A stretch of DNA of 58,137 bases from Candidatus Eiseniibacteriota bacterium (GTDB taxonomy: Bacteria > Eisenbacteria > RBG-16-71-46): assembly GCA_031366795.1 (NCBI GenBank), contig JANLOX010000124.1, positions 1 through 58,137 of the forward strand. Reading direction: 5' to 3'. A program made the position numbers and the translations under genes. Each line of letters begins with the position of its first letter. The stretch's first letter is position 1. Below are positions 1,996 to 55,271 of the stretch, piece by piece. The notes below the pieces were generated by a model. That model made no database searches and was not told the DNA's origin. It worked only from the letters and a program-made list of their open reading frames with translations.

Positions 1996-3486
1996 TTGAC
2001 CGAGGCACTGCTCCCTCCTAGGCTCCACGGTATGACTGCAAGGTCATCCTTCCCGCTGGTGCGGGCGATCGAGTGTTTCGATCCGCTCGACCTGCTGCCG
2101 GCGCTCGCGCGCCTGCGGCACCCGTTCCTGCTGCATTCGAGCCTGAACGACGATGCGGGACGCTGGTCGTTTTTCGGTGCCGAACCGTTCGAGTTCTACT
2201 CGGGCGCGCAGTACGACACCGCCATAGAGCGCTGGCGCGAACTATCCGGGCGCATGCGCGCCGAGGGCTGCGACGCGACGGCCGTGCCGTTCACCGGTGG
2301 CGTGGTCGGCAGCTGGAGCTACGACTTCGGCCGCCGCCTCGAACGCTGGCCTTCGCTCGCGGCGGACGATCTTGGGCTTCCGGACGTTGCCCTCGGTCTC
2401 TACGACGTCGTCGGCGCCTTCGATCATCGCTCCCGTCAGGCGTGGCTATTCTCGAGCGGGTTGCCGTTCGAGGGTGCTGCGCGCGCTGAACGCGCGGCGC
2501 AGCGCCTGCATGAATTCGAGACGCGCCTGTGGGAGCGGCCGGCCCTCGAGCCGCTGGTGTTGCGGCCGGGCGCCAAGGCATTCGCGAGTTCGACGTTTGC
2601 GCGCGAGGCCTATCTCGATGCCGTTCGGTGCGTGCAGGACCACATCACGCGCGGCGATATCTACCAGGCCAACCTGTCGCAGCGCTGGACGCTGCCGATC
2701 GGCGGCCGCGATGGCGTGCTGCAACCCGAACCACTCGGCTTCGCCCAGTTGATGAATGCCGCGGTGGGTCTGCACGCCGCACTCGACGAACGCTCGCCCG
2801 CGCCGTTCGCGGCGTTCTTAGGGGGTGACGATCACGCCATCGTTTCGGCGAGCCCCGAGCGGTTTCTCGAGTTGCGCGCCGGGCGCGTCGAGACGCGGCC
2901 GATCAAGGGCACGCGGCCGCGCGGCGAGGATGCCGCGGCCGATGCGCGGTTGCGCGCCGAGTTGCTGGCCAGCGAGAAGGACCGCGCCGAGAACATCATG
3001 ATCGTCGATGTGCTGCGTAACGATCTCGGCCGCGTGTGCGAGACGGGCAGCGTGAAACCGCTGCGACTGTGCGAGCTGGAAGCGTTCCCGCAGGTGTTCC
3101 ACCTGACCTCGACCATCGAGGGCCGGTTGCGGCGCGAACTCGACGCCTTCGACCTGCTGCACGCGTGCTTCCCCGGCGGCTCGATCACGGGGGCACCCAA
3201 GTTGCGCGCCATCGAGATCCTCGAGTCGATCGAACCCGTGCGCCGCCACATGTACACGGGTAGCATCGGGTATGTCGATTGGCGCGGCGACGCGGATTGG
3301 AACATCGCCATCCGCACAGCACTCGTGACACCGCAGGCGATACACTTTTCGGCGGGTGGCGGTGTCACCGCGGACTCGGACCCCGCGGCCGAGCACGAAG
3401 AAACGCTACACAAGATCGCCGGCATGGGAGCGGCCTTGGGCCGCGCGCTGGGACTCGGGGAATCGCTGCTGCGAGACGCCGTGTGA
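1996..3486 (+). CDS. pabB: aminodeoxychorismate synthase component I (chorismate-binding enzyme)
   Basis: Motifs SPERFL, RPIKGTRPRG, GGSITGAPK and YTGSIGY. Start is ambiguous: TTG 1996 follows GGGGGAG, or ATG 2032. Followed by pabC with a GTGA overlap. Confidence 0.85.
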   Translation: MTEALLPPRLHGMTARSSFPLVRAIECFDPLDLLPALARLRHPFLLHSSLNDDAGRWSFFGAEPFEFYSGAQYDTAIERWRELSGRMRAEGCDATAVPFTGGVVGSWSYDFGRRLERWPSLAADDLGLPDVALGLYDVVGAFDHRSRQAWLFSSGLPFEGAARAERAAQRLHEFETRLWERPALEPLVLRPGAKAFASSTFAREAYLDAVRCVQDHITRGDIYQANLSQRWTLPIGGRDGVLQPEPLGFAQLMNAAVGLHAALDERSPAPFAAFLGGDDHAIVSASPERFLELRAGRVETRPIKGTRPRGEDAAADARLRAELLASEKDRAENIMIVDVLRNDLGRVCETGSVKPLRLCELEAFPQVFHLTSTIEGRLRRELDAFDLLHACFPGGSITGAPKLRAIEILESIEPVRRHMYTGSIGYVDWRGDADWNIAIRTALVTPQAIHFSAGGGVTADSDPAAEHEETLHKIAGMGAALGRALGLGESLLRDAV

Positions 3487-4355
3487 GCGCTGAGCGATTC
3501 GCCCGCGGCGCCAAGGCACCGGATCGCGTGGTTTGGATCGATGGTGAGTTGTTGCGCGGAGAAGCGGCGCGCGTGTCGCTGTTCGACCGCGGCGCGCACG
3601 ATGGCGGGGCGATCTTCGAGACGTTCCGCGTCCACGATGGCCATCCGTTCCTGTGGCCGAAGCATCTCGAGCGCATGGTGCTCGCCGCCGCGGAACTCGG
3701 CTTCCCGGTGCCGCCCTCACCGCTGGCGCTGCGCACCGCTCTCGACGCCGCGCTCGAAGCCAACGCGCTCAGCGACGCCGTTGCGCGCATCACCGTGACG
3801 CGCGGCATCGCCGGCGGGCGCCCGACGCGCACCGGTTGCTGGGTCGAGGTCGAGCCGGTGGGCGGCAGGTTGTGGCGCGGCACGCGCACGGGGGAAGGAT
3901 CCGTGATCCTGTCCAAGCGCCCGTTCGCGCCCGGAGTGCTCGGCGCCTACAAGACGACGAGCCGGCTGGCCTATCACCTCGCCTTCGAAGAAGCGCGCGC
4001 CGCGGGCGCTGACGAGACCATCCTGCTCACGCACCAGGGCGAGGTGCTCGAGGGCTCGGCGAGCAACGTGTTCCTCCACATCGACGGCGAGATCGCCACG
4101 CCGTCACACCACACCGGCATCCTCGCGGGCATCACGCGCGCCTTCGCGCTGCAGGCCTGCTACGACCTGGGCTACCGCCTGCGCACTTCCGCGATGTGGC
4201 GCGACGAGTTGGCGATCGCCGACGAGGTGTTCCTCACCAACGCCGTGCAGGGGATCGTGAGTATCACCAGGGTGGGCGGCCGTGCGGTCAAGACCGGCGG
4301 GGTCGCCGCGCAGCTGCGTGAGGCGCTCGCCGAGGCGATCGCGGCGAGGCGCTAG
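3483..4355 (+). CDS. pabC: aminodeoxychorismate lyase / class IV aminotransferase
   Basis: GTG 3483 overlaps the pabB stop (GTGA). Fold-type IV features are present (FETFRV..., YKTTSRL, GSASNVF, LTNAVQGI). The upstream part of the 3279 ORF lies inside pabB and is ignored. Confidence 0.8.
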   Translation: MSAERFARGAKAPDRVVWIDGELLRGEAARVSLFDRGAHDGGAIFETFRVHDGHPFLWPKHLERMVLAAAELGFPVPPSPLALRTALDAALEANALSDAVARITVTRGIAGGRPTRTGCWVEVEPVGGRLWRGTRTGEGSVILSKRPFAPGVLGAYKTTSRLAYHLAFEEARAAGADETILLTHQGEVLEGSASNVFLHIDGEIATPSHHTGILAGITRAFALQACYDLGYRLRTSAMWRDELAIADEVFLTNAVQGIVSITRVGGRAVKTGGVAAQLREALAEAIAARR

Positions 4356-4623
4356 AGCCACATCGCCGCGGGTCATCCCGCACGACTGTCGGGCGAATTT
4401 CCACAGTCCCCCATGCGCCCTGCCTTCATCCAATAAGGGGACGACCGCGGCCGGTGCGCGTAAACCGCCGAATTCGCTGCAACTCGAGCACGCATGCGGC
4501 GATAACCATGAAACGGCAGAGCGCAATGCCGGTGGCACATTGCATGCTGGTTACGGGTGCAGGAACTACCTGTCTGCTCGCGAACGGCGCGGGCGGACCC
4601 GCGTGGCCACTGAAACCAGCCTG

Positions 4624-6030
4624 ATGTGGGGCGGGGGCATCCCGATGACGGTCAAAGGAGGGCGGCTCGAGTTTCTCGTGCCGCACCTGCTGCGCAGCCA
4701 GGTCCTGCGACCGCAATTCGTTCGCTGGAGCCTACGGCTCGGCGCCGCCCGCCAGATGCCCAAGTGGGCCAAGCTCCAGTTCTTGAACTTTGGCGTCACC
4801 CCGCAGGATCTCGATCGCGTGCTCGGCCGCATCACTAGTCTCGAAGCGTGGGTCGACGAGTGGGACAACCTGGGCCGCGAGCAGGAAGCGCTTGCCCGCC
4901 GCGCGCTGTCGTTCGGCCGCACGCTCGAAGCGCGCGACCTGTTCCTGCGCGCCTCGGCGTCCTTCAACTTCGCGCAATACGTCGTGTTCCTCGATCGCGA
5001 ACGCAAGCTCGTGCTGCATGAGGCTTGCGTCAACGCCTACGCGATGGCAGCACCCTTGTTCGACATTCCGGCGCGCCCGTTCGAGGTGCCCTACCGTCGC
5101 CGCATGCTGCGCGGTTACCTGCGCGTGCCGCCCGGCGTCGAGCCGGCACCGGTGGTGGTGATGTTCAACGGCACGAACTCGGTGAAGGAAGAACTTCACT
5201 GGTGGTCGGATGCGCTGCTGGCGCGCGGGCTGGCCACGATCACCTTCGATGGGCCCGGCCTTGGCGAAACGTTCCATCGGCTCTCGATGGTGGCGGAACC
5301 TCGACCCGTCGGCCTCGCCATCGTCAATGAGGTGCAGTCGCGTCCCGAGCTCGACCCGGAAGCGATCGCCTTCTTCGGCCAGAGCCTCGGCGGCTATCTC
5401 GCCATTCGCATGGCGTCGTTCGATTCGCGCATTCGCGCGGTCGCGGCGGTGAGCCCGCCGTATTCCGCCGAGGTGTACTGGAACGTCACGCTCGTCGGCA
5501 TGCGCCGCGAACTGGCGGCGTTGTATGGGCTGACCGAGGAAGAGATGGGCCGCGAGGTGCATCGCATCACGCTCGACCGCTCGCTGCCTCACCTGCGCTG
5601 CCCCTTGATGGTCTCAGGCGGCGGCCACGACCTGATCACGCCGGGCGAAGAGGCCTGGCGCATCTACGACAACGCGGTGTGCGATCGCGAGATCGTCTAC
5701 TACCCGCGCGGTGGCCACGACTGCTTCAACATGCTGGGCGACCTGCGACCGCGCATGACCGGTTGGCTCGCACGCCAGCTCAAGTTCCATCGCTCGCGTT
5801 CGCGGCGGCCGTTCCTGGCTTCCGAGACGAGCGACGGCCAGCCGCAGATGGCGGGCGAGGCGGTCGACATCGACTTCGCCGATGCGCTGACGGGCGAGGC
5901 GACCCCGCGGGAGTGGAACCGCGCCGAACCCAAGACGATTCCCGCGCGCTGGCGCCCGGATGCCATCACGCCGCGCGCCGACACGACGGTGGAAGTCGTG
6001 CTGCGAAGGTCGCCGGGCGTACCGGTCTAG
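4624..6030 (+). CDS. alpha/beta hydrolase, FrsA-like, with about 100-aa C-terminal extension
   Basis: Nucleophile elbow GQSLGGY. Has the FrsA-type helical cap followed by the FDGPGLGE region. Start at ATG 4624, or alternatively ATG 4645. The ORF track begins earlier at 4282, overlapping pabC. Confidence 0.7.
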   Translation: MWGGGIPMTVKGGRLEFLVPHLLRSQVLRPQFVRWSLRLGAARQMPKWAKLQFLNFGVTPQDLDRVLGRITSLEAWVDEWDNLGREQEALARRALSFGRTLEARDLFLRASASFNFAQYVVFLDRERKLVLHEACVNAYAMAAPLFDIPARPFEVPYRRRMLRGYLRVPPGVEPAPVVVMFNGTNSVKEELHWWSDALLARGLATITFDGPGLGETFHRLSMVAEPRPVGLAIVNEVQSRPELDPEAIAFFGQSLGGYLAIRMASFDSRIRAVAAVSPPYSAEVYWNVTLVGMRRELAALYGLTEEEMGREVHRITLDRSLPHLRCPLMVSGGGHDLITPGEEAWRIYDNAVCDREIVYYPRGGHDCFNMLGDLRPRMTGWLARQLKFHRSRSRRPFLASETSDGQPQMAGEAVDIDFADALTGEATPREWNRAEPKTIPARWRPDAITPRADTTVEVVLRRSPGVPV

Positions 6031-40262: not shown

Positions 40263-41504
40263 CTAGGGCGTGCCGCCCGTCACGGTATGCAAGACGGTGC
40301 CGTTCTCGCCGACCGCCCAGCCGCGCAACCCATCGATGAAATGGACGCCGGTCAGTAGCGCCGCAGGAGAGGTGGCCTGCGAATTCCAGGTGACGCCGCC
40401 ATCCGTAGTGACCAGCACGAGACTCGTGCCATTGCGGCCGACCGCCCAGCCGTGTAGTGCGTCGGTGAACGCTACCGCGCGCAGGTCGTTCAGGGCACCC
40501 GCATTGCGAATTTCCCATGCGACCGAGTCGGGCGTCACGGTGGTGCGCGGTGTCGCGCCACTTGTGCCGACGGCGTGCGTGCTCGCGATGGAGCTGCGCG
40601 CGACGCCGTACAGCGTCAGCGAGGTGACCGACGGTTGCACCACGAACCACGTCAGGCCGCGATCGTGCGTGCCGACGATGGTGCCGTTGTCGCCGACCGT
40701 CCAGCCGTCACGCGTGCCGGCGAACGACACGCTACGCAGTGTGACCGCGGTGATGCCCGGCATCAGGCGCGTCCACGTCGCACCGTGATTGACGGTGCGT
40801 AGAATGGTGCCGTTGGCGCCTACCGCCCAGCCCGTGTCGGGCGTGGCGAAGGTGATGCCATTGAGGTTGTCTGTCGTGCCGCTGGCAACCACAGCCCACA
40901 CCGCCCCCTGGTTGGTGGTGTGCAAGATGCGTCCTCCTCCACCCGTCACCCAGCCTTCGGTGCTGCTGGTGAACCACACGGAGGTGAGCGTATTGCTCAC
41001 GCTGCTCGGCTGCGTGACCCACGATGTGCCCGCATTGGACGTGGCGACGATTTTGCCCGCCGCACCCACTGCCCAACCATGATTGCCGTCCGCGGTGAAG
41101 AACACGCTGCTCAAGTCTTCCAGCACACTGCTCGGCTGCGTGAACCAGCCGCGCTGCGTCGGCAGCACCAACAGGTTGGCCGCCGCCGTCTTGCCGCCCG
41201 AACTGACACTGAGTGTCGCGCTGCCTTCGCCGACGGCGGTAACCGCACCCGTATTGGAGACTTGGAACACGGCGGAGTTGCTGCTGCTCCAGGTGAGCAC
41301 CGGGTTCGCGACGACCACGCTGTGCGTATCGACGGCGACGACTGTGAACGAGGCGCCGCCGCCCACGAGCAATGTGTCGGCGCCGGGCAGCAGCGTGAGC
41401 GATGACAGCGGGACCGACGGAATCGGGGCCACCGAACTACCAGCGCTACAACCTGCCACGACAGCCAGGAACCCTGCGGTTGCGAGCAGACGGCGAACGC
41501 TCAT
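40263..41504 (-). CDS. lipoprotein with Big_2-like Ig domain and Ycf48/BNR-like beta-propeller
   Basis: Lipobox VAGC. Ig-like segment (VLTWSSSNSAVFQVSNTGAVTAVGEGSATL), then repeated GWAVG..G.I..T.D.G.TW blades. Confidence 0.75.
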   Translation of the reverse strand: MSVRRLLATAGFLAVVAGCSAGSSVAPIPSVPLSSLTLLPGADTLLVGGGASFTVVAVDTHSVVVANPVLTWSSSNSAVFQVSNTGAVTAVGEGSATLSVSSGGKTAAANLLVLPTQRGWFTQPSSVLEDLSSVFFTADGNHGWAVGAAGKIVATSNAGTSWVTQPSSVSNTLTSVWFTSSTEGWVTGGGGRILHTTNQGAVWAVVASGTTDNLNGITFATPDTGWAVGANGTILRTVNHGATWTRLMPGITAVTLRSVSFAGTRDGWTVGDNGTIVGTHDRGLTWFVVQPSVTSLTLYGVARSSIASTHAVGTSGATPRTTVTPDSVAWEIRNAGALNDLRAVAFTDALHGWAVGRNGTSLVLVTTDGGVTWNSQATSPAALLTGVHFIDGLRGWAVGENGTVLHTVTGGTP

Positions 41505-41801: not shown

Positions 41802-42749
41802 ATGCTCCAGGTTCGAGATGTCGTCAAAAGCTACGACGGACGCGTGGTTGTCAACAAGGTGGCGTTTGAGGTCCAGGCCGGCGAGATCTTCGCCCTGCTG
41901 GGCCCCAACGGCGCCGGCAAGACCACGCTGATTCGCATGATCACCGACATCCTGCGCCCCGATTCGGGCGACATTCTCTGGGACGGCCGCCCGGCGCGGG
42001 AACGCGGCGCCCAGCACGTGGCCTACCTGCCCGAGGAACGCGGGCTGTACCGCCGCACCCCGGTGATCGACACCATCGCCTATTATGGCGAGTTGAAGGG
42101 CATGAGCAGCGCGGATTCACGCGCCGAAGCCACGCAGTTGCTGAAGCGCGTCGAGCTTTCGGAATGGGGCGACAAGCAGGTACAGGCGCTGTCGAAGGGC
42201 ATGCAGCAAAAGGTCCAACTGTGCACCGTGCTGATCGGCGGGCCGAAGCTGTTGATCCTCGACGAGCCTTTCAGCGGTCTCGACCCGCTCAACGTTCTGT
42301 TGCTCGAGGAGATCCTGCACGAGGTTCGCGCCGCCGGCGCCACCGTGCTGTTGTCGACGCACCAGATGAACAAGGTCGAGCAGTTGTGCGACCGCGCCCT
42401 GATGATCAATCACGGCCACATGGTGTTGTACGGAGCCGTGAAGGAGCTGCGGCGCCAGCATGCGGACCACGCGGTCCTCCTGCGCGCCGCGTCCGCGCCG
42501 CCGCGCGTGGCCGGCGTGACCGCGATCGCGGCGCACGACGATGGCTACAAACTGGCCCTGGAGCCGATGGCGACCCCGACCTCAGTGTTACGGGAATTGC
42601 TGGCCGCGGGAGTCGAACCGGAGTCTTACAGCGTGGCGACCTTGCCGCTCGAGGACGTGTTCGTGAAGGTCGTCCGCGAAGGGCTCGGGCTCGATCACGG
42701 CAAGAGCGACACCGCCGCCGCGGCGCTCGCCACGGGAGGCGCACGATGA
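41802..42749 (+). CDS. ABC transporter ATP-binding protein (ABC-2/NatA-like)
   Basis: Walker A GPNGAGKTT, signature LSKGMQQK and Walker B LLILDEPFSGLD. Confidence 0.9.
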   Translation: MLQVRDVVKSYDGRVVVNKVAFEVQAGEIFALLGPNGAGKTTLIRMITDILRPDSGDILWDGRPARERGAQHVAYLPEERGLYRRTPVIDTIAYYGELKGMSSADSRAEATQLLKRVELSEWGDKQVQALSKGMQQKVQLCTVLIGGPKLLILDEPFSGLDPLNVLLLEEILHEVRAAGATVLLSTHQMNKVEQLCDRALMINHGHMVLYGAVKELRRQHADHAVLLRAASAPPRVAGVTAIAAHDDGYKLALEPMATPTSVLRELLAAGVEPESYSVATLPLEDVFVKVVREGLGLDHGKSDTAAAALATGGAR

Positions 42750-44047
42750 GCCTGTCCATGCAGCGCATCAAGACCGTCGCGCGACGCGACTATCTCTACA
42801 CGGTGCGGCGCCGGGCGTTCGCCTTCACCTTGATCGGCATGCCGTTGCTGTACGCGGTGCTGTTCACGCTCGTGCTCAAGCCCCAGGCCTCCGAACGGCT
42901 GGGCGCCCTGCGCGCCTTCGACGCACTGGGGGTGGTCGATTCCTCGGGGCTGTTCAGTGCTGCGCCGAGCGAAGTCTGGATCGAGGCGTCCCCCACCAAT
43001 CCATTCGCGAAAAAGGATGGCAAGAAGAAGACCGAGCGCTTTCACACGACGGTGCGGCAGTTCAGTGGCGAGGCCGCGGGCCAGGCGGCGCTGCGCGACA
43101 GCACGGTGCACCAATTGATCGTGGTGCCCAAGGACTACGAGCACACCGGGGCGCTGCGGCGCTACGCGCGGACCGACAACCTGTTCACCGCCAGCGACCA
43201 GCGCGTCGTGAGCCGCTGGATCGTGCAGGGGCTCCTGCACCCGATGGATTCCACGCGGGTCGAACTGCTCACGCAACCGCTGGCGCGCGAGGCGCTGTAT
43301 GCGCCCAACCGCGACGGCGTCTTCGAGGAGAAGGACGAGGCGCGCGAGACGCTCGATCTGCTGCTGCCCCTGGCGCTGGGGATGTTGCTGGGGTTGTCGA
43401 TCCTGATCGGCGGTCAGTACCTGCTCCAGGGCATCAGCGAGGAGAAGGAGTCGCGCATCCTCGAATCCATGCTGTGCACCGTCAGCCCCGAGGAATTGCT
43501 GGCGGGCAAGTTGCTCGGGTTGGGTGGCGCCGGCCTGACGCTGGTGGGCGGCTGGATCCTGCTGATGACCGGCGCGATGGGCTCGGTGGCACCGGCGATG
43601 GGGCTGTTGCATGTCTCGCTGCCGCCCATGGTCATCGCCGTCATGATCGCCTACTTCATGCTGGGCTACCTGTTCTACGGCAGTCTTATGATCGGCATCG
43701 GCGCCATGGCGAGCAGCATGCGCGAGGCGCAGCAGTTCTCGATGGCGTTCACGATGATGAACTTCATCCCGTTCTACATGCTGTCGATCCTGCTCGGCCA
43801 CCCGGACTCGAAGCTCGCCGTGGCGATGTCGATGATCCCGTTCACGGCGCCAGTCTCCTCGATGCTTCGGCTCGCGGCCTCCGGGTCGCACGTTCCCGGC
43901 TGGGAGATCGCGCTATCGCTGTCGATCCTGGCCGCTTCGGCGGCGGGGGTGCTGGTGCTGTCCGCCAAGCTGTTCCGCATCGGCATGCTGATGTACGGAA
44001 AGGCGCCAAACCTGCCCGAAATCCTCAGGTGGCTGCGGCAGGCCTAG
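42746..44047 (+). CDS. ABC-2 type permease (NatB-like)
   Basis: ATG 42746 overlaps the ATPase stop (ATGA). One N-terminal TM, a large extracytoplasmic loop and a C-terminal TM bundle. Confidence 0.8.
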
Positions 44048-44075: not shown

Positions 44076-44759
44076 CTAACGCCTTGCGCCGTAGCTCACG
44101 ACCCAGTTGTAGAGGATCTCGAAGTCCAAGAAGCTCATCGCTCCGAGGTTGTACATGGAGTTCAGGGGTTTTGAGCGTTTGATGCACAGACTGCTGGGGT
44201 CCCCGGCGATGATGTTTGCCCGCGAACCATCGCTGCCCGCACCGAACAACGCGGCGTAGCTGTCGGTGCGGTACTGCCCCCCTGGCTGTGCCGCAGCATG
44301 GCAGCGGTTGCAGTGCGTGGCCATCAGCGGGGCGATGTCCCTGCCGTAGCCGAGCCCTGCGGTAAAAATCGCATTACGGTCGCCGGTCAGGCCGCCCGCG
44401 AGGGAGCGCACGTTGTCCGCGCGGACGGTGTAGAGACTGGAGTCCGAAAGCGGTCCGCCGGACAAGAGCAATTGCACGACTCGCCCGTTGATCGTGTCGA
44501 TCAGTGTGGAACTGAACAGGCTGATGGCGGCTTCCGGGTGGTTGAACGGATACACGCGGTAGTGCGTCAGCGTCTCGGCGCTCGCGCGATCCAGCGGCTC
44601 AGCGAACTCCACGTCGACCGCGAAGTCGCTGGCGGATGCGGCGCGGAGGGTAGGTGGTGGCGCCAGCACGCGCGCCGCGTGGCATCCGGCGACCAACCCC
44701 AAGGCGCCCGTCAGGATCGAGCAGGCCAGCAGGATGCCGGGACGGCGGCGGCAGCTCAC
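44076..44759 (-). CDS. lipoprotein with Ig-like (SbsA/Big_5-like) domain and C-terminal CXXCH cytochrome-c-type (PSCyt1-like) domain
   Basis: GTG 44759 overlaps the upstream stop (GTGA). Lipobox [26 protein letters not shown] Ig-like segment. Heme motif CNRCH (44298-44312), followed by ...GDPSSL...[10 protein letters not shown]. Confidence 0.65.
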
Positions 44760-45904
44760 TGTTCCTCGTCCGCGGCCGCACCGCGACCGCCTCGCCACAC
44801 GTCACCCGTCCACTCGATTGCCAACCCCGCGAGGTAATCACGATAGCTGCCTGAATCTCCGGTCGTGCTCGTCGAGGACGAGGCGCCGAGGCGGGCGTGA
44901 TTGAATTCGGTGCGGCCACTCGCCACCGCCGACCAGTGGTGGCCGACGCCGAGCCGCACGTCCAGCTCGCCGGCGTTCAGCACGTCCTTGCGGCCGAAGT
45001 GGAAGCGATCCGTTGCGCGATCTGAAGTGAATGCGCGCGTTTCGAACTCGTAGCGAGCGGACGTGGCGAGCCGCCACCGGCGGCCCCGCGCCAGTTCGGC
45101 GCCGCCTTCCAGGTGGGAGACCAGGCCGTGATAGCTCACGTCGGACAACGGAGTCACGTTGCCCGTGGCGACATCAACAAAGCTTCCTGCCTGCGCGCGG
45201 CTCACGCGATAGCCTGCCCCCAGATTCACACTTCCGCGACGGGGCAAGTGACCGAGCGTGAGCTGTCCCTGCCCCTGGTGCGTTGCGGATGAACGCTCCT
45301 CGAATTCAGGGTTGTAGCCGCGGGCTTCGTAGCGATACTCGGCGTTGCCGGTGAGGTTGCGGCGGAGCCGCTGCGTCCACCCGAGTGTCGTGATCTGCAA
45401 CTTGAATTCCGCGCGCCGGTACTTCGACAAGCCGCGGAACGCGACCACGGCGTTCGGGTCGAACAATTGCCGGAGATAGTAGCGTGGCAGGAGATAATAG
45501 GTGGCCGCGAACCGCCGGCCCTCACCAAAGCCCTCTCGCCAGCCGATGCTCATGGCGTGGGCATCGGCCGTGCCATTCTTGGAATGAAAGTTGCCCTCCG
45601 CGTGGAGCCGGAGGGCGCGCCTGCGGCCCCCGGGCCGCCGTTGCTCGAGGTTGAGCGTGGCGTATGGGTTGGCGATGAAGTCGTCCCGCGTGCGAATCGA
45701 AAACTCGTCCGGCCGCGTACCCGCCTCGAACAGACGAAGTTGGTCGTCGGAGTACTGCAGGAGATTATTGTCGTAATTTCCGGCGATTCCAACGGACATC
45801 TCCAGATGCGGGCCAGCGGCAGGCGCTGCGGACACGGGACCGACGAGCGCGACCGCGGCGAGCGCCAACCCGGCGAGATGGACACTTCCGCGTGAAGGGG
45901 TCAA
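44756..45904 (-). CDS. putative outer-membrane beta-barrel protein
   Basis: TTG 45904 lies 8 nt after GGAGG. Signal peptide LAGLALAAVALVGPVSA. Strand-like alternation with YDNNLL, YRYEARGY and RYEFETRAF segments. Confidence 0.6.
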   Translation of the reverse strand: MTPSRGSVHLAGLALAAVALVGPVSAAPAAGPHLEMSVGIAGNYDNNLLQYSDDQLRLFEAGTRPDEFSIRTRDDFIANPYATLNLEQRRPGGRRRALRLHAEGNFHSKNGTADAHAMSIGWREGFGEGRRFAATYYLLPRYYLRQLFDPNAVVAFRGLSKYRRAEFKLQITTLGWTQRLRRNLTGNAEYRYEARGYNPEFEERSSATHQGQGQLTLGHLPRRGSVNLGAGYRVSRAQAGSFVDVATGNVTPLSDVSYHGLVSHLEGGAELARGRRWRLATSARYEFETRAFTSDRATDRFHFGRKDVLNAGELDVRLGVGHHWSAVASGRTEFNHARLGASSSTSTTGDSGSYRDYLAGLAIEWTGDVWRGGRGAAADEEQ

Positions 45905-45910
45905 TTTCGG

Positions 45911-46834
45911 TTATTCCTCCCCGCCAATCATCGGTTGCGGTATCGCGGCATGTATTTCGGCGGCACCCCGCAGGGGCCGCAGCAAATCGACCAGGATTTC
46001 GTGGGCGCCCGCCGGGATCTCGACTCGTCCGCGATCAAACTTCGAAGGTGTGCGATCGGGAAGATTCGAGTACGTGGCGGCGATCGCCTTGGTCGTCTTG
46101 AAATCGAAGTCGCGAATTGTTCGCGTGCCCTCGCGCACGCGAATGGCGTAGTGCTGCTCGCCGCGCATGCTGGCGTCGAAATCGAGGCGGCTCGTCAGGT
46201 CGAGCACCACGGGCCCTACCACATGGTACCGCACCGGCTTGCCGGGCATCGCCGTGTAGTAGGCGATGGACTTCTCGCCTTCGACCACGTTCACACTGCG
46301 CGGTGCGTCGACCGGCGTGAGTGTCACCATCGGAACCTTGGCATTCGCGGCGCCGGCGGTTCCGGTTTGTAACCGCAGCAGCACGGACTCTACGCCCTGA
46401 AGATCGAGCGTGATGGAGTGGCGGCCGTTGGGGATGTCGATGCTCCATCTGCGACTCTTGCCCACGGCGCCGCGCAGGTCCTTGATGTGAACGCGATCGG
46501 CTGCCGAGGTCTCGGTGTCTTCACGGTCCAGCACCTTGCCGTTCTCGGTCGCGCGCAAGTGATAGCTGACGACCTTTGAGGATCCCGCCGGCAGCTCAGC
46601 GCGCGACACCACGCGGAGCACTGCGGGGCCATCGACAGGGATCACCAAGGGGGACTTGGGAGTGATGCGAAAGTAGACGCGCGGGTTGTCGTTCACGAGC
46701 ACGGTCACGCCGGGATGGCCCGGCAACGATTCGACCGATTCCCAGTGTGTCGCCGCGAAGGATGGTGTGGCGGCCATCGTGATTCCCACGAGAATCGCGG
46801 TAAGAACGGACGTATTCCGGAGCGAAGGGTTCAT
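45911..46834 (-). CDS. secreted hypothetical protein (beta-rich)
   Basis: ATG 46834 overlaps the upstream stop (ATGA). Signal peptide MNPSLRNTSVLTAILVGITMAATPSFA. Confidence 0.65.
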   Translation of the reverse strand: MNPSLRNTSVLTAILVGITMAATPSFAATHWESVESLPGHPGVTVLVNDNPRVYFRITPKSPLVIPVDGPAVLRVVSRAELPAGSSKVVSYHLRATENGKVLDREDTETSAADRVHIKDLRGAVGKSRRWSIDIPNGRHSITLDLQGVESVLLRLQTGTAGAANAKVPMVTLTPVDAPRSVNVVEGEKSIAYYTAMPGKPVRYHVVGPVVLDLTSRLDFDASMRGEQHYAIRVREGTRTIRDFDFKTTKAIAATYSNLPDRTPSKFDRGRVEIPAGAHEILVDLLRPLRGAAEIHAAIPQPMIGGEE

Positions 46835-47952
46835 GCGGATGGCATTCTTTCAGGGTGGGGACGTCCCAGCAATCGCTGGCGGAGATCCAGCCGCAGGACG
46901 AACAGGTTGAACAGGAGCACGAGCATCGCGGCGGCGCCAACGATCCACAGGTTGTAGCGATAGCGAATGAACAACAGGCCCTTGCCCACTGGCGTCGGGG
47001 TCGTGGTGCCGTCGCCCATGTCGAATTCGCGGGCGAGTTTGTTGACCTGGAGGAGGTGGATCACGGGGATCCGCCGCTCCGCCATGACATTGATGACGCC
47101 GCGGTTCGGGTAGTTCCGCGCGGCGAGACGATGGGTCAGACCGGCGGGGATCAGGCGGCCATTCTGGGCGCCGCCCAGGCTCGCAAGCCCGCCGCCGACG
47201 TTGATGTAGAGCTTGATGGGTTTGCCGAGAGAGTTTGCCACCGAGTCGTACAACGCCACGCGCTCGCGCACTGCTTCCAACAGGTTGGTCGCATCGAGAT
47301 AGCGGACGTGATTGCGTTCGATCGCATCGAGGATCAACTGGCGGCCAGAGGGTGAAAGCCCGCGTCCGACGTCCCCGCCGCCGCCGAGCGATGCGGCGAG
47401 TGAGTGAAAGGGTGTGATCGAATGCTCGGACAGCACGGTTTCCATGTCGAGCCAGGTCAACTCCGGATCGTTCGCCCCGAACATCGAAGCGCCCACCGAC
47501 GTGATCACGACCGGCCGCGCTCCAATGGCCTGGCATGCCGAATACACCGCGAGGTTGAGCCCGGGCAGCGAGCCGGTGACGCCAACAGCGACGACGTCGC
47601 CTGCGTGCACGCCTGCTTGCAGAATGAGTTGTGTGATCCCCGCGGCGAAATTCGGGTGTGCCGCCAGCATCTTGGCGCGCTGGGATCCGCGGTCCGTTGT
47701 GATCAATGAGAATTGAGGCCCGATGACCCCGTAGCCATAGGGGTCGTTGCGGGAGTCTACATCGACGCCGCGTTCGTGCTTGGCCGCGGCGATCGCGCGT
47801 TCGCCGCGCTCCATGATCTGCACGGCCTTCAGCTTCATGCGATAGGCCTCTGCGTGCACTGGGGTGACGGATTTCTCAGCAAAGGCATAGACGACGATGG
47901 CAAAACAGGCCAGACCGGCAAGGGCCGCCGTGGAAGCGCGCGAGAGGCTCAT
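46831..47952 (-). CDS. PGA-locus membrane protein, not CapA/PgsA-like (resembles the 'poly-gamma-glutamate system protein' family as I recall it)
   Basis: ATG 47952 overlaps the pgsC stop (ATGA). N-terminal TM (AALAGLACFAIVVYAF) and C-terminal TM (LWIVGAAAMLVLLFNLFVL). I saw no metallophosphatase/CapA motifs. Confidence 0.65.
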   Translation of the reverse strand: MSLSRASTAALAGLACFAIVVYAFAEKSVTPVHAEAYRMKLKAVQIMERGERAIAAAKHERGVDVDSRNDPYGYGVIGPQFSLITTDRGSQRAKMLAAHPNFAAGITQLILQAGVHAGDVVAVGVTGSLPGLNLAVYSACQAIGARPVVITSVGASMFGANDPELTWLDMETVLSEHSITPFHSLAASLGGGGDVGRGLSPSGRQLILDAIERNHVRYLDATNLLEAVRERVALYDSVANSLGKPIKLYINVGGGLASLGGAQNGRLIPAGLTHRLAARNYPNRGVINVMAERRIPVIHLLQVNKLAREFDMGDGTTTPTPVGKGLLFIRYRYNLWIVGAAAMLVLLFNLFVLRLDLRQRLLGRPHPERMPSA

Positions 47953-48401
47953 CGGATCAAGACTCCACCGTTGAGCAGCATGAGCAGCAAGCGGACGAGC
48001 ACCGCCGTCGTGGTCATCACGCACAACGTCTGCACGACGCCTTGGCGCTCCATCCAATTGGCGATCAGCCCGGGGATCACGTAGCCGATCGTGCTCAGGT
48101 CCAGCGGCGCGTCGTGCAACTGCAACACCAGCAGGTCGCGTGAAGCCGCGCCGAACACGAACCCAACGAGCACCGAGACGACGATGCGACGGCGGCCGTA
48201 GATCAACATATAGCGCGACATGAGCTTGAGCGTGCCGAAGGTCAACAATGCCGCGACGATCGTGCCCAGAATGCGGAACGGCTCGTGGATCATCAGAGCG
48301 AGGTACCCGGGCACCACCATGCCACCTGCTGCGAGCCCCAGCGTTTCGGAGAAGATGAGGCTGGTGACCAGACCGAGACCGATGGCCTCTTCAATCATCA
48401 T
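47949..48401 (-). CDS. pgsC: poly-gamma-glutamate biosynthesis membrane protein PgsC/CapC
   Basis: 150 aa, four TM segments. GMVVPGYLAL, YGRRR and VIPGLIANWMERQG match CapC segments (VVPGYLAL, YGRRK, VPGLIAN..QRQG). Confidence 0.9.
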   Translation of the reverse strand: MMIEEAIGLGLVTSLIFSETLGLAAGGMVVPGYLALMIHEPFRILGTIVAALLTFGTLKLMSRYMLIYGRRRIVVSVLVGFVFGAASRDLLVLQLHDAPLDLSTIGYVIPGLIANWMERQGVVQTLCVMTTTAVLVRLLLMLLNGGVLIR

Positions 48402-49569
48402 CTACCGCCCGGTTCTTGAAGTGGAGCACGATTTCCTCCCCGAGTCCCACAATATTACCGATGCCGACCACTGTGGCCCGCCCGTCAGCGATGCCGAGCA
48501 CATGCTCATAAACCCGCTCCGCCTCCATGCCGCCCAGATTGCTCAGCCGTGACTCGTCCAATCCGTAACGCGCCGCCTGGAAGGCAACAAGATCCGTTCC
48601 CAGGCCGGTCAGCACTGCGTGATCGACCGTCAGGCGTTTTGCGATCAACTCCGCGATTTGGCCCGAGCGCTGCAGCCGGTCGTCCCGGCAATTCGCGAGG
48701 ACGATGCGCTTCGCTCCCGGCTCCGGGTGCTCGAGGCCGAGCCGTTGCCAGATTAGCAGCGTCGAGTCGGGGTCGTTCGCGGCAAACGCGTTGACGAAGG
48801 TGACGGTATTGTGGCCGGACTTGACGGTATACCGTCGCAGCGCGCCCGGGTCGGGTGTCGCCGCATGCATGCCGCGCAATGCCGTGGCGCGGTCCACGCC
48901 GAGATGCGCGCACACCGCCAGTGCCAGCGAAACATTCTCGGCGTGCTCGAAATACGTGAATCCCGAGAGGTCTTCCGGGGTGACGCCTTCGTCGGTCGTG
49001 ACCTGTAGCGTGCTGCCGCGCTTGCGCGCCACTTCGGCCACGATATGGGCGCGTTCGCGCTCGGCGGTGAAGGCATGGCCCCGCACCGGCATCGTCTGCG
49101 CGAGGGCTCGCGCGGCGTCATCGACCGTGGGCCCCATGACATCCAGGTGGTCCGCGCGCACGTTGGTCAGTACGCCGACCGTGCTGCGAATCAAGCGCAA
49201 CTCCGAGATCGGCTGGAGCTCAGGCGCCACCGCCATGCACTCGATCACGAGCGCCTCGGCGCGAGCCTCGACGGCGCGCCGCACGATGCGTGTTTGCTCG
49301 ACCAGGTTGGGATGGCCGACGCGGTACACGTCGGTTTCAGAGCCGTCGGGGCGGATGATGCGCGCCATCGTGCCGGTCGTTTTCGCAAACGTGCGGATCC
49401 CCCCCTCGCGTAATCCGCCGGCAATCAGCCGGGTCACCGAGGACTTGCCCCGTGTGCCGTTGACGTGCACACGGATGGGGATCTGCAACAAGTTGCGCTG
49501 GTGGCGTCGCATCTCAACGACACCGTATAACGAAAGTCCAGCCGTCAGGATTGCGGGAACGATGGCCAT
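48391..49569 (-). CDS. pgsB: poly-gamma-glutamate synthase PgsB/CapB (Mur-ligase-like amide ligase)
   Basis: Start at MAIVPAIL (ATG 49569, N-terminal TM). P-loop VHVNGTRGKSSVTRLI, then AKTTGT. 392 aa, the same size class as Bacillus PgsB. Confidence 0.9.
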   Translation of the reverse strand: MAIVPAILTAGLSLYGVVEMRRHQRNLLQIPIRVHVNGTRGKSSVTRLIAGGLREGGIRTFAKTTGTMARIIRPDGSETDVYRVGHPNLVEQTRIVRRAVEARAEALVIECMAVAPELQPISELRLIRSTVGVLTNVRADHLDVMGPTVDDAARALAQTMPVRGHAFTAERERAHIVAEVARKRGSTLQVTTDEGVTPEDLSGFTYFEHAENVSLALAVCAHLGVDRATALRGMHAATPDPGALRRYTVKSGHNTVTFVNAFAANDPDSTLLIWQRLGLEHPEPGAKRIVLANCRDDRLQRSGQIAELIAKRLTVDHAVLTGLGTDLVAFQAARYGLDESRLSNLGGMEAERVYEHVLGIADGRATVVGIGNIVGLGEEIVLHFKNRAVDDD

Positions 49570-49576
49570 GGCGGCC

Positions 49577-51838
49577 TCACGGGCGGATGCGGACAAGACT
49601 CGCGGTGCGCGTTCCGAATGTGGTTTCCAACTGGACAAAAAACAGTCCGGGAGCCGTTGCATGCCCTCGGAGGTCCTTGCCGTCCCAGACCGCATCATGC
49701 GTCCCAGCCGTCAGGTTTGTCGAGTCGACGAGATTCCGCACGCGCGCGCCGTTCAGCGCGAACACCCCAACGCGAACACGCGTGCTTCCGGGCAGCGTGA
49801 AGCGCACGTGCGCTGGGCCCTGCGCCAGCGGATTGGGCCAGGCCGACAGCGCCAGCGACAGCGCATTGCTGGGCGATTGCGGAACCGACAGGGCCGTGTA
49901 GTAGCCGGACATTTCCGACACGCCAGCTTCCGTGCCCGCGTAGAGGATGCCGAGAGGGCCATCAATGGCGAGCGAGAATACGTTGAGGCTGGGCAATCCG
50001 GCCTGGGCGTAGACCGGCCACCACGAGGCGCCCCCATCGAGGCTCTCGAAGACGCCTGCGCCCCAGACGCCGCAGAACAACGCCGCAGGGTGGGAGGGAT
50101 CCTGGATCAGCGCCCGCACTGAAGCCGCCCCCGGCAACCCGGTCCGTGCAGGCACCCACGAGTCTCCCGCATTCAGGCTCTTGAAGACTCCTGAATCCGT
50201 TGCGGCGTACACCGTGAGCGGGGTGCTCGAGTCGACGACGATCGCGTGCACGAACAGACTGGCGAGGCCGCTGGTCTTCACGGCCCAACTGTTGCCGCCC
50301 GTGTCGGAGCGGTAAACGCCCGCCGAATCGGAGCCGGCAAACAAGCGCAATGGCGCGCCGGGGACCAGCGCCAGCGAACGCACGCTGAATGACGCCGGCA
50401 AACCGTTTGAAACCGGTGCCCACGTCGTCGCGCCGTCGCCTGATTCAAATACGCCGATGCCGGTACCCACGAACAGGTGACCGGAAACCCCGGGCATCGC
50501 GACGACTGGCCTCACGAACTTGTTCGTCAGCGTAAGACTCAGCGAATCCGGATTGTCCCAGGTGACGCCGCCGTCGCTGCTTCGATAGACACCACCACCA
50601 TAGAGAGACAAGTAAAGCGTGTTGGGCAACAAGGGGTCCAAGGCAATGCCGCGCTCGGAGTCGCGGGAAAACAGGAAGTTGGCGCGCTGCCAACTGACGC
50701 CCTGGGTCGTACTCCGCCAGAATTGGTCCCCGAATCCTGTGCCGTCGAATACCACGTGGTCGGCCGGCCGCACCGTGAGCGCGAATCCATAGGTCGCGAG
50801 CAACCCGCCATCGAGTTGAGTCCAGTGAGTATCCGGCGCCGTGGTCCGGAACAGTCCATCCCCGTCGGTTCCCGCGAGCACCGGGGCGCCCAGTACGGAC
50901 CCGAGCAGCGCATCGACGATCGAGGTTGAGGGCACACCGGCGTTCGCTGCATGCCAGATGGAATCGTTGAGCGAAGTAAAGTAGACACCCTGACCATCGG
51001 TCCCCAGGTAGCGAAGGGTATCGACGATCGCAATCGAACGCGATCGCAACGTGGGCAATCCACGATTGATGCGCGTCCAGCTGGTGCCTCCGTCCGCGCT
51101 CTTCAATACACCGCGGTCCAGCTCCGCGACGTAAATGCGGCTCGAGTTGAGCGGGTCGATGCGGATCTGCTCGGCGGCCCCGAGTGTCGCCGTGGTGTCG
51201 GGCACCTGGGTCCAGGTGAGGCCGCCGTTGAAACTGCGGTGCACACCGCCGCCGGTGCCCGTCGCAGCAAATAGCGTATCCGGCTTCGAGGGCAGCAGCT
51301 CCACATCGCGCACATTCGTATTGACCAGCCCGAGATTGATCGTGCTCCAGTTCTTGCCACCGTTGAGTGACTTGAAGATCCCTGCGCCATAGGTGGACGC
51401 ATAGATCACCGCGGTGCGAATGGGGTGAATCGTGATGGAGCGGACCGAACTCGTGCTGCTTCGGACCAGGGACCACGTCACGCCACCATCGACGCTCGAG
51501 TAAACGCCGTCGTTCGTTCCGCAGAAGAGCGAGTCCGGATGGTGGGGGTTCACAGCGAGCGAGCGCACGTAAGTGTTAACCAGCCCCGTGCGGTACGCCG
51601 TCCACGTAGATCCGTTGTCGAGCGATCGGTAGACACCGGCGCCGAAGGACGCCGCCCACATCCTGGATGGATTCAAGGGATCCCTGACCACGTCCTCGAT
51701 GCTCCTTGCGCGGGGGCCGGTTCCCGTCCAGACACGCGCGCCGGCCGAAGCGTGGCCGGCGAGCAATGCGGTCATGGCAACGACAGACAACAGGGCGACT
51801 GTGCATCGTATTGCCAGACGGACCAGCTTCGAATTCAA
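49577..51838 (-). CDS. secreted multi-blade BNR/sortilin-like beta-propeller protein with FlgD-Ig/T9SS-like C-terminal domain
   Basis: TTG 51838 lies 5 nt after GGAGG, and a signal peptide follows. Many S.D.G.TW repeats. The C-terminus (WPNPLAQGPAHVRFTLP...VGVFALNGARVRNLV...WDGKDLRGHATAPGLFFVQL) is typical of FlgD-Ig/T9SS sorting domains. Confidence 0.75.
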   Translation of the reverse strand: MNSKLVRLAIRCTVALLSVVAMTALLAGHASAGARVWTGTGPRARSIEDVVRDPLNPSRMWAASFGAGVYRSLDNGSTWTAYRTGLVNTYVRSLAVNPHHPDSLFCGTNDGVYSSVDGGVTWSLVRSSTSSVRSITIHPIRTAVIYASTYGAGIFKSLNGGKNWSTINLGLVNTNVRDVELLPSKPDTLFAATGTGGGVHRSFNGGLTWTQVPDTTATLGAAEQIRIDPLNSSRIYVAELDRGVLKSADGGTSWTRINRGLPTLRSRSIAIVDTLRYLGTDGQGVYFTSLNDSIWHAANAGVPSTSIVDALLGSVLGAPVLAGTDGDGLFRTTAPDTHWTQLDGGLLATYGFALTVRPADHVVFDGTGFGDQFWRSTTQGVSWQRANFLFSRDSERGIALDPLLPNTLYLSLYGGGVYRSSDGGVTWDNPDSLSLTLTNKFVRPVVAMPGVSGHLFVGTGIGVFESGDGATTWAPVSNGLPASFSVRSLALVPGAPLRLFAGSDSAGVYRSDTGGNSWAVKTSGLASLFVHAIVVDSSTPLTVYAATDSGVFKSLNAGDSWVPARTGLPGAASVRALIQDPSHPAALFCGVWGAGVFESLDGGASWWPVYAQAGLPSLNVFSLAIDGPLGILYAGTEAGVSEMSGYYTALSVPQSPSNALSLALSAWPNPLAQGPAHVRFTLPGSTRVRVGVFALNGARVRNLVDSTNLTAGTHDAVWDGKDLRGHATAPGLFFVQLETTFGTRTASLVRIRP

Positions 51839-52086: not shown

Positions 52087-52677
52087 CTACCCGAGTGCGG
52101 AGCGCATGGCCGCCACGAAGGCCGCGAAGCGAGGGGTCGCAAAGCGGCGTCCGTCGCGTTTCAAGGAGGCGAAGAACGAAGCCCTGAGCCCCCGCGACAG
52201 CTCCACTTGGACCCCTCGACCCGAACGTGCACGGTTACAGATGTTGGCAGGATCCATGCCGGTCCATTGCGGGTGCACATTGACCGTTGTTACCGCCGCC
52301 AGCGCACGGGAGATTCGATCCGCAAACCCGGAATCGAGACCGCCCATAAATGCGCATTGAGGCTCCGAGGACTCGCCGTGGAGTGCCAGAACCTGATCGG
52401 CTCCTGCCAGCAGTGCGAGGCAGTGAGGATCATCGAACCGGGTACTAGTAATGTGCAGGGAGTTGCTTCCAGAGGATCGTAACCCCTCGAATACATAGAG
52501 CGAGTGATCGCTCCCCGCCACAGCGTCCGCCAATTCGGAGGTGCCGGGCTCAATCCCCCCCCCATGCGGAGCAATCACCACCAGCCCCGAGGTCCCCTTT
52601 CGCCAGCGGACCCGGAAGTCGCGCCCTTCGGTGGTGTTTGCCACCAGCTCGGCGAAGTTTGTGTATCGGTCGGGCAT
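52087..52677 (-). CDS. poly-gamma-glutamate hydrolase family protein (PghP/DUF867-like)
   Basis: Start at MPDRYTNF. APHGGGIEPGTSELA, LYVFEGLRSSGSNSLHITSTRFDDP and DPANICNRARSGRGVQVE align with phage PghP and Bacillus YjqB-type motifs as I recall them. No signal peptide. Confidence 0.8.
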   Translation of the reverse strand: MPDRYTNFAELVANTTEGRDFRVRWRKGTSGLVVIAPHGGGIEPGTSELADAVAGSDHSLYVFEGLRSSGSNSLHITSTRFDDPHCLALLAGADQVLALHGESSEPQCAFMGGLDSGFADRISRALAAVTTVNVHPQWTGMDPANICNRARSGRGVQVELSRGLRASFFASLKRDGRRFATPRFAAFVAAMRSALG

Positions 52678-55048: not shown

Positions 55049-55229
55049 CCCGGACTCGAGTTCACCACGAGGCGTAACGTTCAATTCGACCGCGGTCTGC
55101 GTCGTGTGAACAGCTACCAGGCGCGGTGCTTTGCATTGACACTGCCGCGATCGGCTCCGTAGGCTCCCGCAGTCTTCACCCGTCGCGCGCTCAGCGCTCG
55201 ACATGCTCATTCCACGGAGGGATCCGCCC

Positions 55230-55271
55230 ATGCTGTCGCGCATGCTGTCGCGCATGCTGTCGCGCATGCTT
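55230..55271 (+). repeat. 12-bp tandem repeat (ATGCTGTCGCGC x3.5) at the start codon
   Basis: Direct reading: atgctgtcgcgc atgctgtcgcgc atgctgtcgcgc atgctt. This gives MLSR-MLSR-MLSR-ML. Confidence 0.95.

Follow-up and report, generated by a model that had tools for sequence, protein, structure and literature searches.

A candidate route for poly-gamma-glutamate across the outer membrane: a five-gene unit shared by Eisenbacteria and Cloacimonadota

How does poly-gamma-glutamate (PGA) leave a cell that is surrounded by two membranes? No route across the outer membrane of Gram-negative bacteria has been characterised for this polymer. The question is raised by a gene block on contig JANLOX010000124.1 of a Candidatus Eiseniibacteriota bacterium (assembly GCA_031366795.1), whose 58,137 nucleotides are called here the window. 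Between positions 44076 and 51838 the window encodes the PGA synthase proteins PgsB and PgsC, the PGA system protein PgsW, and two further envelope proteins designated g5 and g6, and these five genes constitute a concrete candidate for the missing route. A three-gene arrangement, CapB–CapC–"PgsF", has been called "typical of Gram-negative PGA producers" (bioRxiv 10.1101/2025.11.11.687785), and the pgsBCW three-gene unit is already known, both from the TIGR04332/pgsW annotation and from its description for Gram-negative and Cloacimonadota genomes. In the literature, the accounts found of the Gram-negative PGA operon give three genes only, and no paper was found that describes the g5 beta-sandwich protein or the g6 barrel, or that deals with the mechanism of TIGR04332/pgsW. 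The two additional proteins define two unannotated families. The matter also has an ecological side: for Cloacimonadota in anaerobic digesters, a part of PGA in syntrophic aggregation has been proposed.

PgsB (48391..49569, on the minus strand like every gene of the block) is the amide ligase of PGA synthase, with an N-terminal membrane anchor, a Mur_ligase_M domain and a GTRGKSS P-loop, and scores 434.2 bits against the equivalog model TIGR04012 (cutoff 222.7). PgsC (47949..48401), the integral-membrane subunit, reaches 127.3 bits against TIGR04011 (cutoff 96.45) and 122.7 bits against PF14102. Both identities had been proposed in a preliminary description of this DNA, and both lie far above the curated TIGRFAM cutoffs. 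Directly 3′ of pgsB–pgsC lies a TIGR04332 gene (46831..47952; 290.3 bits, cutoff 100), whose gene symbol in the Prokaryotic Genome Annotation Pipeline is pgsW. The preliminary description had presented its product as a two-transmembrane protein that is not CapA-like. This is correct as regards the two membrane segments and the distance from CapA, but the protein is not novel: it belongs to a family with more than 2,173 homologues, the named ones of which are called "poly-gamma-glutamate system protein". Since PgsW has two hydrophobic segments, at about residues 5–27 and 333–358, and an Arg-rich C-terminal tail, its middle domain of about 300 amino acids (aa) is predicted to lie in the periplasm, between an N-terminal and a C-terminal transmembrane helix.

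The layout of the block was read from its open reading frames (ORFs) and their junctions. Seven consecutive minus-strand ORFs, numbered g1 to g7 from position 51838 downwards (pgsB, pgsC and pgsW being g2, g3 and g4), follow one another with almost no spacing. Between g1 and pgsB there are a TGA stop, 7 nt and an ATG start (49579/49569); pgsB and pgsC overlap by 11 nt (48391–48401); ATGA overlaps join pgsC to pgsW (47949–47952) and pgsW to g5 (46831–46834); g5 is followed by TAA, 6 nt and the TTG start of g6, with GGAGG upstream (45905–45910); and g6 and g7 share a GTGA overlap (44756–44759). The earlier reading of seven packed genes and of all six junctions was therefore right. The window has a G+C content of about 65%, and in every gene of the block the G+C content at third codon positions (0.77–0.85) is well over that at second positions; homologues were found elsewhere for each of the genes. 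This excess, together with the homologues, indicates that the ORFs are real genes. In consensus scans, promoter- and terminator-like sites inside the block were no commoner than in shuffled sequence.

Which of these genes belong together? For this purpose, genomes, one for each species, were scanned with PgsW as the seed, which gave 80 loci, and the presence of each gene was scored with alignment-based profiles built for this work. The peptide patterns used in the scan are highly specific and retrieved PgsW of the Eisenbacteria and Cloacimonadota types only. The former account for 33 of the 80 loci (PgsW 54–98% identical to that of the window, the upper value in the locus L009 of "Candidatus Eisenbacteria bacterium GFS_11975") and the latter for the other 47 (37–46% identical). 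In the assessable Eisenbacteria-type loci, g5 is present in 33/33 and g6 in 28/30; in those of the Cloacimonadota type the figures are 44/45 and 39/40, and the sole exception, L065, has two secreted ORFs of matching size in both positions. About 70 loci of the two groups retain the order pgsB–pgsC–pgsW–g5–g6. Homologue searches from the other side, which returned 20 sequences for g6 and 107 for g5, led to the same unit, as all of the metagenome loci reached through them (8/8) carry the five genes. Moreover, g6 is found directly upstream of pgsB in three loci (L008/L037 and L028), which means that the linkage survives rearrangement. The conserved unit is accordingly formed by five genes and not by seven. 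The suggestion that the distal genes are linked to pgsBC holds for g5 and g6, while g7, as well as g1, is restricted to some Eisenbacteria.

Several observations on the distribution can be added here. Seven loci with PgsW 62–72% identical to that of the window (L010, L020, L024, L028, L035, L037 and L040) bear the labels Dormiibacterota, Acidobacteriota, Omnitrophota or Hyphomicrobiales, and one and the same 3464-bp contig occurs in a metagenome-assembled genome of Eisenbacteria and in another of Solirubrobacteraceae (L015, L016); such odd labels could be due to binning noise or to lateral transfer. In L020, the gene of a 518-aa barrel of the Alginate_exp (AlgE) family (3136–4692, minus strand) stands directly after g5 in convergent orientation, which hints at a non-orthologous replacement of the exit channel. 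A megaplasmid locus of Cetobacterium somerae (L095; plasmid NZ_CP143320.1, 397187–411900) has the order ggt, TRAP transporter permease, AstE/AspA-like deacylase and then pgsB–pgsC–pgsW. As regards the envelope of the host lineages, lpxJ has been reported in about 96% of Cloacimonadota genomes. We infer a diderm envelope for Eisenbacteria also, because a predicted barrel, a lipoprotein and domains of type IX secretion system (T9SS) type are encoded and a gene of the lipopolysaccharide heptosyltransferase family lies near one locus.

A further tie between pgsW, g5 and g6 comes from gene fusions. The g6 family comprises 624 relatives at E ≤ 1e-3 in a profile search of 1.84 billion cluster representatives (50% identity), and fusions were sought among the best 150 of them and checked with our own PgsW, g5 and g6 profiles. 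Outside the loci that keep the five-gene order, the three proteins were found fused in every combination: PgsW, g5 and g6 in a single 975-aa protein (P0347), PgsW and g6 in P0306 and P0383, two g5 domains and g6 in P0350, one g5-like domain and g6 in at least six proteins, and PgsW and g5 in a 669-aa protein. Wherever DNA was available, the fusion genes lie directly 3′ of pgsB–pgsC. For instance, the 975-aa pgsW+g5+g6 ORF comes directly after these genes in L089, and pgsW+g6 does so in L094, while in L091, a chromosome of 12.2 Mb, pgsB–pgsC are followed by pgsW+g5 and then by g5+g6. In the fusions that begin with PgsW, a third hydrophobic, signal-like segment appears after the cytoplasmic tail of PgsW and before the g5/g6 part; this fits the predicted topology, since extracytoplasmic g5 and g6 would require it. 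Taken as a whole, the fusions are strong evidence of a single physical unit, made up of PgsW, g5 and g6, that crosses the envelope.

What kind of proteins are g5 and g6? The first of them (45911..46834) is a secreted protein with two tandem beta-sandwich (jelly-roll) domains. It starts with a signal peptide, and its AlphaFold2 (AF2) model, with a mean predicted local distance difference test (pLDDT) of 89.6, consists of two all-beta domains (residues 31–159 and 169–299). No match to g5 was found in Pfam, in NCBIfam or among PDB sequences. At the level of fold, the best Foldseek matches were tandem carbohydrate-binding modules (CBM22/CBM51) and BcsB, with template modelling (TM) scores of 0.2–0.3. 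The alignment of g5 homologues contains many invariant Arg, Lys and Tyr residues, and the terminal Glu is invariant in 51 sequences. In addition, the protein encoded directly upstream of a g6-type barrel ends acidic in every clade inspected (..IGGEE, ..GVIEE, ..VGKAE, ..YFYRVE, ..FYNVD; the C-terminus of g5 itself corresponds to 45911–45925), and such an end may serve as a docking tail of the barrel partner.

The second protein, g6 (44756..45904), also begins with a signal peptide and is predicted to form an outer-membrane beta-barrel. An AF2 model based on an alignment of 18 sequences (pLDDT 77.7, predicted TM-score 0.76) has 14 long strands, and a strongly conserved segment, YDxNxLxYSD...RF.I.T.DD, is located between strands 1 and 2, where the modelling has low confidence. 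The best Foldseek matches in the PDB were CymA and OmpG (E about 6e-9 to 1e-8, TM-score about 0.45); the polysaccharide porin PgaA came at rank 17. Profile searches of the PDB with PgsW, g5 and g6 gave no match at E ≤ 1, and neither g6 and g7 nor the Cloacimonadota counterparts matched any Pfam or NCBIfam model; one g6 homologue only grazes OMP_b-brl (28.1 bits, cutoff 28.7). The signal peptides and the barrel model agree with what the preliminary description had proposed for both proteins, a secreted one of 307 aa and a barrel candidate of 382 aa.

The barrel family is not confined to PGA loci. P0369 is a tetratricopeptide repeat (TPR) protein fused to a g6-type barrel, which is the architecture of PgaA, BcsC and PelB. 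In P0260, the barrel is fused to a right-handed beta-helix with a DPHD motif, and the gene (L090, 755–8480) lies between a Glyco_tranf_2_3 gene, encoding a processive-type glycosyltransferase of family 2 (GT2), and the gene of a chondroitinase-B-like T9SS protein; this looks like a polysaccharide system using the g6 barrel family. A separate clade (clade 2) was represented by 22 metagenome loci retrieved with a clade-2 alignment. In the longer ones examined, an array of CarboxypepD_reg/Big_1/TIG beta-sandwich domains (830–1040 aa) is encoded by a gene whose end is overlapped by that of the barrel; genes for a small protein with a weak likeness to P-loop proteins and for an ABC exporter usually precede the array gene. 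The g6-type barrel thus appears to be an outer-membrane module of general use, combined with periplasmic beta-sandwich partners and with inner-membrane synthases or exporters. As a side observation, L099 (1971–8456) contains a complete four-gene set formed by a 343-aa weakly P-loop-like protein, the ABC exporter, the array and the barrel; L100, L104 and L105 (partial) resemble it, and L110 has a different gene order. Judged from these sequences, the set looks like a system for export through the envelope that has not been described.

Besides the five core genes, the neighbourhood contains a candidate for PGA turnover. The gene g0 (52087..52677, minus strand) encodes a PGA hydrolase of the PghP type, which matches PF05908 (Gamma_PGA_hydro) with 193.7 bits (cutoff 22; residues 63–248, profile positions 1–191 of 191) and carries the motif HGGGIEPGT in the H-x4-E region. 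Its start is probably M59 of a 254-aa ORF that reaches 52851, and a gap of 248 nt separates it from g1, on the same strand. PMC4497714 reports that pghP, where it occurs outside Bacillales, is mostly carried by species that lack pgsB. A homologue of the hydrolase adjoins the cassette in L001/L002 and L006, that is, in three loci with two distinct sequences, and its position and orientation vary. This gene had escaped the preliminary description, which stated that no CapA/PgsA, PgsE or CapD/GGT homologue could be recognised. The statement itself is valid for the locus proteins tested: no Pfam or NCBIfam match to CapA/PgsA was found among the eight proteins of the locus, the rest of the window not having been scanned exhaustively; GGT and PgdS gave no match in the locus proteins, and PgsE and CapD were not found in the locus.

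The two remaining genes of the block form an accessory pair. The first, g1 (49577..51838), has a TTG start after GGAGG and encodes a 753-aa protein with a signal peptide and a beta-propeller of BNR/Sortilin type (Sortilin-Vps10, 88 bits; also BNR and PSII_BNR). The propeller had been recognised before, together with a sorting domain for which the support is weak: FlgD_ig scores 22.2 bits, below its cutoff of 27, and the PorZ model aligns with the C-terminal region only (E = 2.3e-11, 42.9 bits, cutoff 260). The second, g7 (44076..44759), encodes a lipoprotein with an N-terminal signal sequence, the lipobox LVAGC, an Ig-like domain and a C-terminal domain resembling a mono-haem cytochrome c (PSCyt1-like; the Pfam match is weak, E = 0.042). 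The CXXCH lipoprotein of the earlier reading is well founded, as CxxCH is invariant in 16 orthologues, in which the lipobox Cys, YRTDSY and NSM[FY] are invariant or nearly so; the conserved Met of NSM[FY] would suit as the distal ligand of a c-type cytochrome. Both genes are present in 12 loci and both absent from seven, with no discordant case, and all of these loci are from Eisenbacteria. The pair is consequently a lineage-restricted accessory and not part of the core, being strictly co-occurring and present in only a subset of the Eisenbacteria loci.

Cloacimonadota offer a parallel to this pair. A Peptidase_C25 protein of about 1150 aa with a T9SS sorting domain is encoded directly upstream of pgsB in about 20–23 of 30 assessable loci (for example, L042, 2582–8359), and it is often preceded by the gene of an M14 zinc carboxypeptidase, in which that sorting domain recurs. 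The identification of the C25 protein as PorU was rejected, as it scores 68.6 bits against a cutoff of 420. Its function may be the processing or the attachment of PGA at the cell surface, or its adjacency may simply be conserved synteny. By analogy with Cloacimonadota, it can be speculated that g1 and g7 take part in surface retention or processing of the polymer.

Other neighbours were also considered. Another secreted propeller, built of repeats of the Big_2 and Ycf48/BNR types, is encoded 2.5 kb past the operon (40263–41501, minus strand), and L009, a near-identical contig, is the only other locus in which its gene adjoins the cassette. Between the end of the block and a convergent ABC-2 transporter gene (41802–44047) there are 28 nt; this gene was rejected as a part of the system because of its orientation and because it, too, is kept in L009 only. 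At 55225–55270, the 5′ end of an ORF for a DUF6588 outer-membrane protein contains 3.8 tandem copies of the 12-nt unit CGCGCATGCTGT, which would translate as MLSRMLSRMLSR; the repeat lies probably upstream of the true start of the ORF.

How might these parts act together? In Bacillus, polymerisation of glutamate by PgsBC and the start of translocation are established. On the basis of family membership and of that activity, PgsB would polymerise glutamate with ATP at the cytoplasmic face, PgsC would be the membrane part of the synthase, and the two would start translocation. PgsW, to judge from its family and predicted topology, would take the place of PgsA/CapA as the extracytoplasmic subunit. 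In the periplasm, g5, with its all-beta fold and its many invariant Arg, Lys and Tyr residues, would receive the polyanionic chain, bind it and guide it to g6, whose predicted fold and linkage make it the putative exit through the outer membrane. The PghP-type hydrolase g0 would trim or recycle PGA. The product is probably PGA, given that a PGA-specific hydrolase adjoins the cassette and that a preprint reports clumps of PGA stained with DAPI (4′,6-diamidino-2-phenylindole) in a Cloacimonadota enrichment culture. Taken together, the locus is on balance probably a trans-envelope, synthase-dependent PGA secretion system of a diderm. The preliminary description had assigned periplasmic and outer-membrane passage, or surface attachment, to all the genes that accompany the synthase; linkage, fusions and the barrel fold speak for this in the case of pgsW, g5 and g6, but not of g1 and g7. 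A broader proposition, namely that pgsBCW–g5–g6 represents an undescribed class of trans-envelope machine and, with it, the first route by which a polyamide is exported through the outer membrane, and that g6 with its beta-sandwich partner is a general exit module plugged also into GT2 synthases and ABC exporters in several diderm phyla, seems to us evenly poised between true and false.

Several points weigh against the secretion system as proposed. The solved folds nearest to g6, CymA and OmpG, belong to uptake channels, and even these reach a TM-score of only about 0.45. A crude test for an electropositive pore, in which the residues on alternating strand faces were counted, gave 17 Arg/Lys against 18 Asp/Glu, so that the lumen is balanced in charge and shows no obvious signature of a polyanion channel. 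As the TM-scores of g5 are low, its likeness to BcsB and to carbohydrate-binding modules is generic. Lacking a signal peptide, g0 would not meet the exported polymer. Among the Eisenbacteria-type loci, L020 and L038 have no g6, and in Cetobacterium somerae (Fusobacteriota, a diderm) unrelated genes come after pgsB–pgsC–pgsW, neither g5 nor g6 being present within 7 kb; hence these two proteins are not universally needed with PgsW, and some diderms do without them or use other parts. Every clade-2 barrel locus (22/22) is devoid of pgs genes, and the TPR, GT2 and ABC contexts support the role of g6 as an exit duct while they weaken its dedication to PGA. Finally, it is the spacing of the genes alone that suggests co-transcription of the block, and for these uncultured phyla the production of PGA, its export and the contacts between the proteins are read only from genes and models.

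Could the same genes serve another purpose? One alternative is that g5 and g6 retain PGA as a capsule, which proteins of T9SS type (the BNR propeller in Eisenbacteria, C25 in Cloacimonadota) would attach or trim in a manner analogous to CapD. In both phyla a protein with a T9SS sorting domain is encoded directly upstream of pgsB (g1 in at least 12 loci, C25 at the frequency given above), the T9SS sortase PorU is itself a C25 peptidase, and g5 resembles polymer-binding modules. However, the C25 proteins remain far under the PorU cutoff (68.6 against 420 bits), T9SS cargo genes are so numerous in both phyla that the adjacency may be phylogenetic inertia, and many loci with g5 and g6 lack both g1 and g7; besides, anchoring and passage are not mutually exclusive. 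Retention in place of export is in our view unlikely, albeit worth keeping in mind. The structural resemblance of g6 to CymA and OmpG leads to another alternative, an uptake route for gamma-glutamyl oligomers or glutamate, in which g5 would bind the substrate, the cytoplasmic PghP-type hydrolase would degrade it, and PGA turnover would be coupled to synthesis. The absence of a signal peptide in g0 agrees with it, as do the two genes for periplasmic amino-acid-binding proteins that follow the fused gene in L089 and the M14 carboxypeptidase gene often found nearby in Cloacimonadota. Nonetheless, the fusion of the barrel and of g5 to the synthase-associated PgsW and the translational coupling to pgsBC both argue for a role in biosynthesis, the other contexts of the barrel are of the export type (GT2 synthase, ABC_membrane-type exporter, TPR fusion), and the hydrolase is adjacent in few loci only, all of which makes uptake very unlikely.

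It may also be asked whether free PGA is made at all. PgsB, PgsC and PgsW might instead gamma-glutamylate or build another envelope component, with g5 and g6 at its service. PgsA/CapA is absent from the locus and PGA has not been demonstrated in Eisenbacteria; likewise, we know of no proven PGA product for the capBCA homologues present in some Gram-negatives, such as Francisella. Against this stand the equivalog-level scores of PgsB and PgsC, the adjacent member of a PGA-specific hydrolase family and the PGA-like material stained in the Cloacimonadota enrichment. Furthermore, the Gram-negative Fusobacterium nucleatum, from the same phylum as the pgsBCW-bearing Cetobacterium somerae, is named as a maker of PGA in a passage of PMC3815933 that cites Candela et al. 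(2009). A product other than free PGA is accordingly given little credence here. A last objection would be that g5, g6, g1 and g7 encode envelope proteins with no relation to pgsBCW and stand beside these genes by chance. The four were counted as lacking family annotation, and the lineage restriction of g1 and g7 would agree with this. But the order is kept across two phyla in which PgsW is only 37–46% identical, the linkage is maintained after rearrangement and there are multiple independent fusions, so that chance is effectively refuted for g5 and g6 and retains hardly any probability overall. Secretion across both membranes remains, therefore, the preferred reading of the locus, and it is with this reading in mind that the known systems are compared below.

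The nearest known system is the pgsBCW cassette (TIGR04012/TIGR04011/TIGR04332), to whose families the first three core genes of the window belong; their order is also the same, and their junctions overlap. The difference lies in its end, since the published unit stops at the third gene, while the window and the other loci that keep the order (about 70) add g5 and g6, which are sometimes fused to pgsW. The Bacillus systems pgsBCA(E) and capBCADE share with the window orthologous PgsB and PgsC and a PGA-degrading enzyme encoded nearby (PgdS or CapD in Bacillus, the PghP type in the window). Unlike them, the window has no PgsA/CapA, PgsE or CapD/GGT in the locus and has PgsW instead; moreover, Bacillus is a monoderm and its system has no outer-membrane component. 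With respect to the PghP/YmaC/YoqZ hydrolases (PF05908), g0 matches the whole domain and the H-x4-E region, but it is chromosomal and lies beside a diderm synthase operon, not in a prophage. The 14-strand monomeric channels CymA and OmpG agree with the g6 model in strand number and are similar in size; they differ from g6 in having no sequence similarity to it, the TM-score being about 0.45, and in being uptake channels from sugar-utilisation operons.

A last comparison is that with the synthase-dependent exopolysaccharide systems. In those of alginate (Alg8/44–AlgK–AlgE), poly-N-acetylglucosamine (PgaABCD), cellulose (BcsA/B/C) and Pel, one operon encodes a synthase of the inner membrane, a handler of the polymer in the periplasm and a barrel of the outer membrane, and the five-gene unit would be analogous to them in this respect. 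The fold match of g5 to BcsB, the TPR fusion and the GT2 neighbour seen among the relatives of g6 are further points in common. The barrels of the Alg, Pga, Bcs and Pel systems have 16–18 strands, whereas 14 are predicted for g6, which shares the generic barrel fold with AlgE, PgaA and BcsC but has no sequence relationship to them. The polymer also differs, being a polyamide made by an ATP-dependent ligase of Mur-ligase type, with no glycosyltransferase; in addition, the periplasmic partner of the window is the all-beta g5 and not a TPR protein, and no cyclic di-GMP module was seen. In its working the locus would resemble these exopolysaccharide systems, but it does not belong to their group, since it lacks both a glycosyltransferase and a TPR scaffold and the sequence of its barrel is unrelated to theirs. 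If the proposed role is true, the idea of synthase-dependent secretion extends from polysaccharides to a polyamide, and the five-gene unit may improve the production of PGA in Gram-negative hosts.

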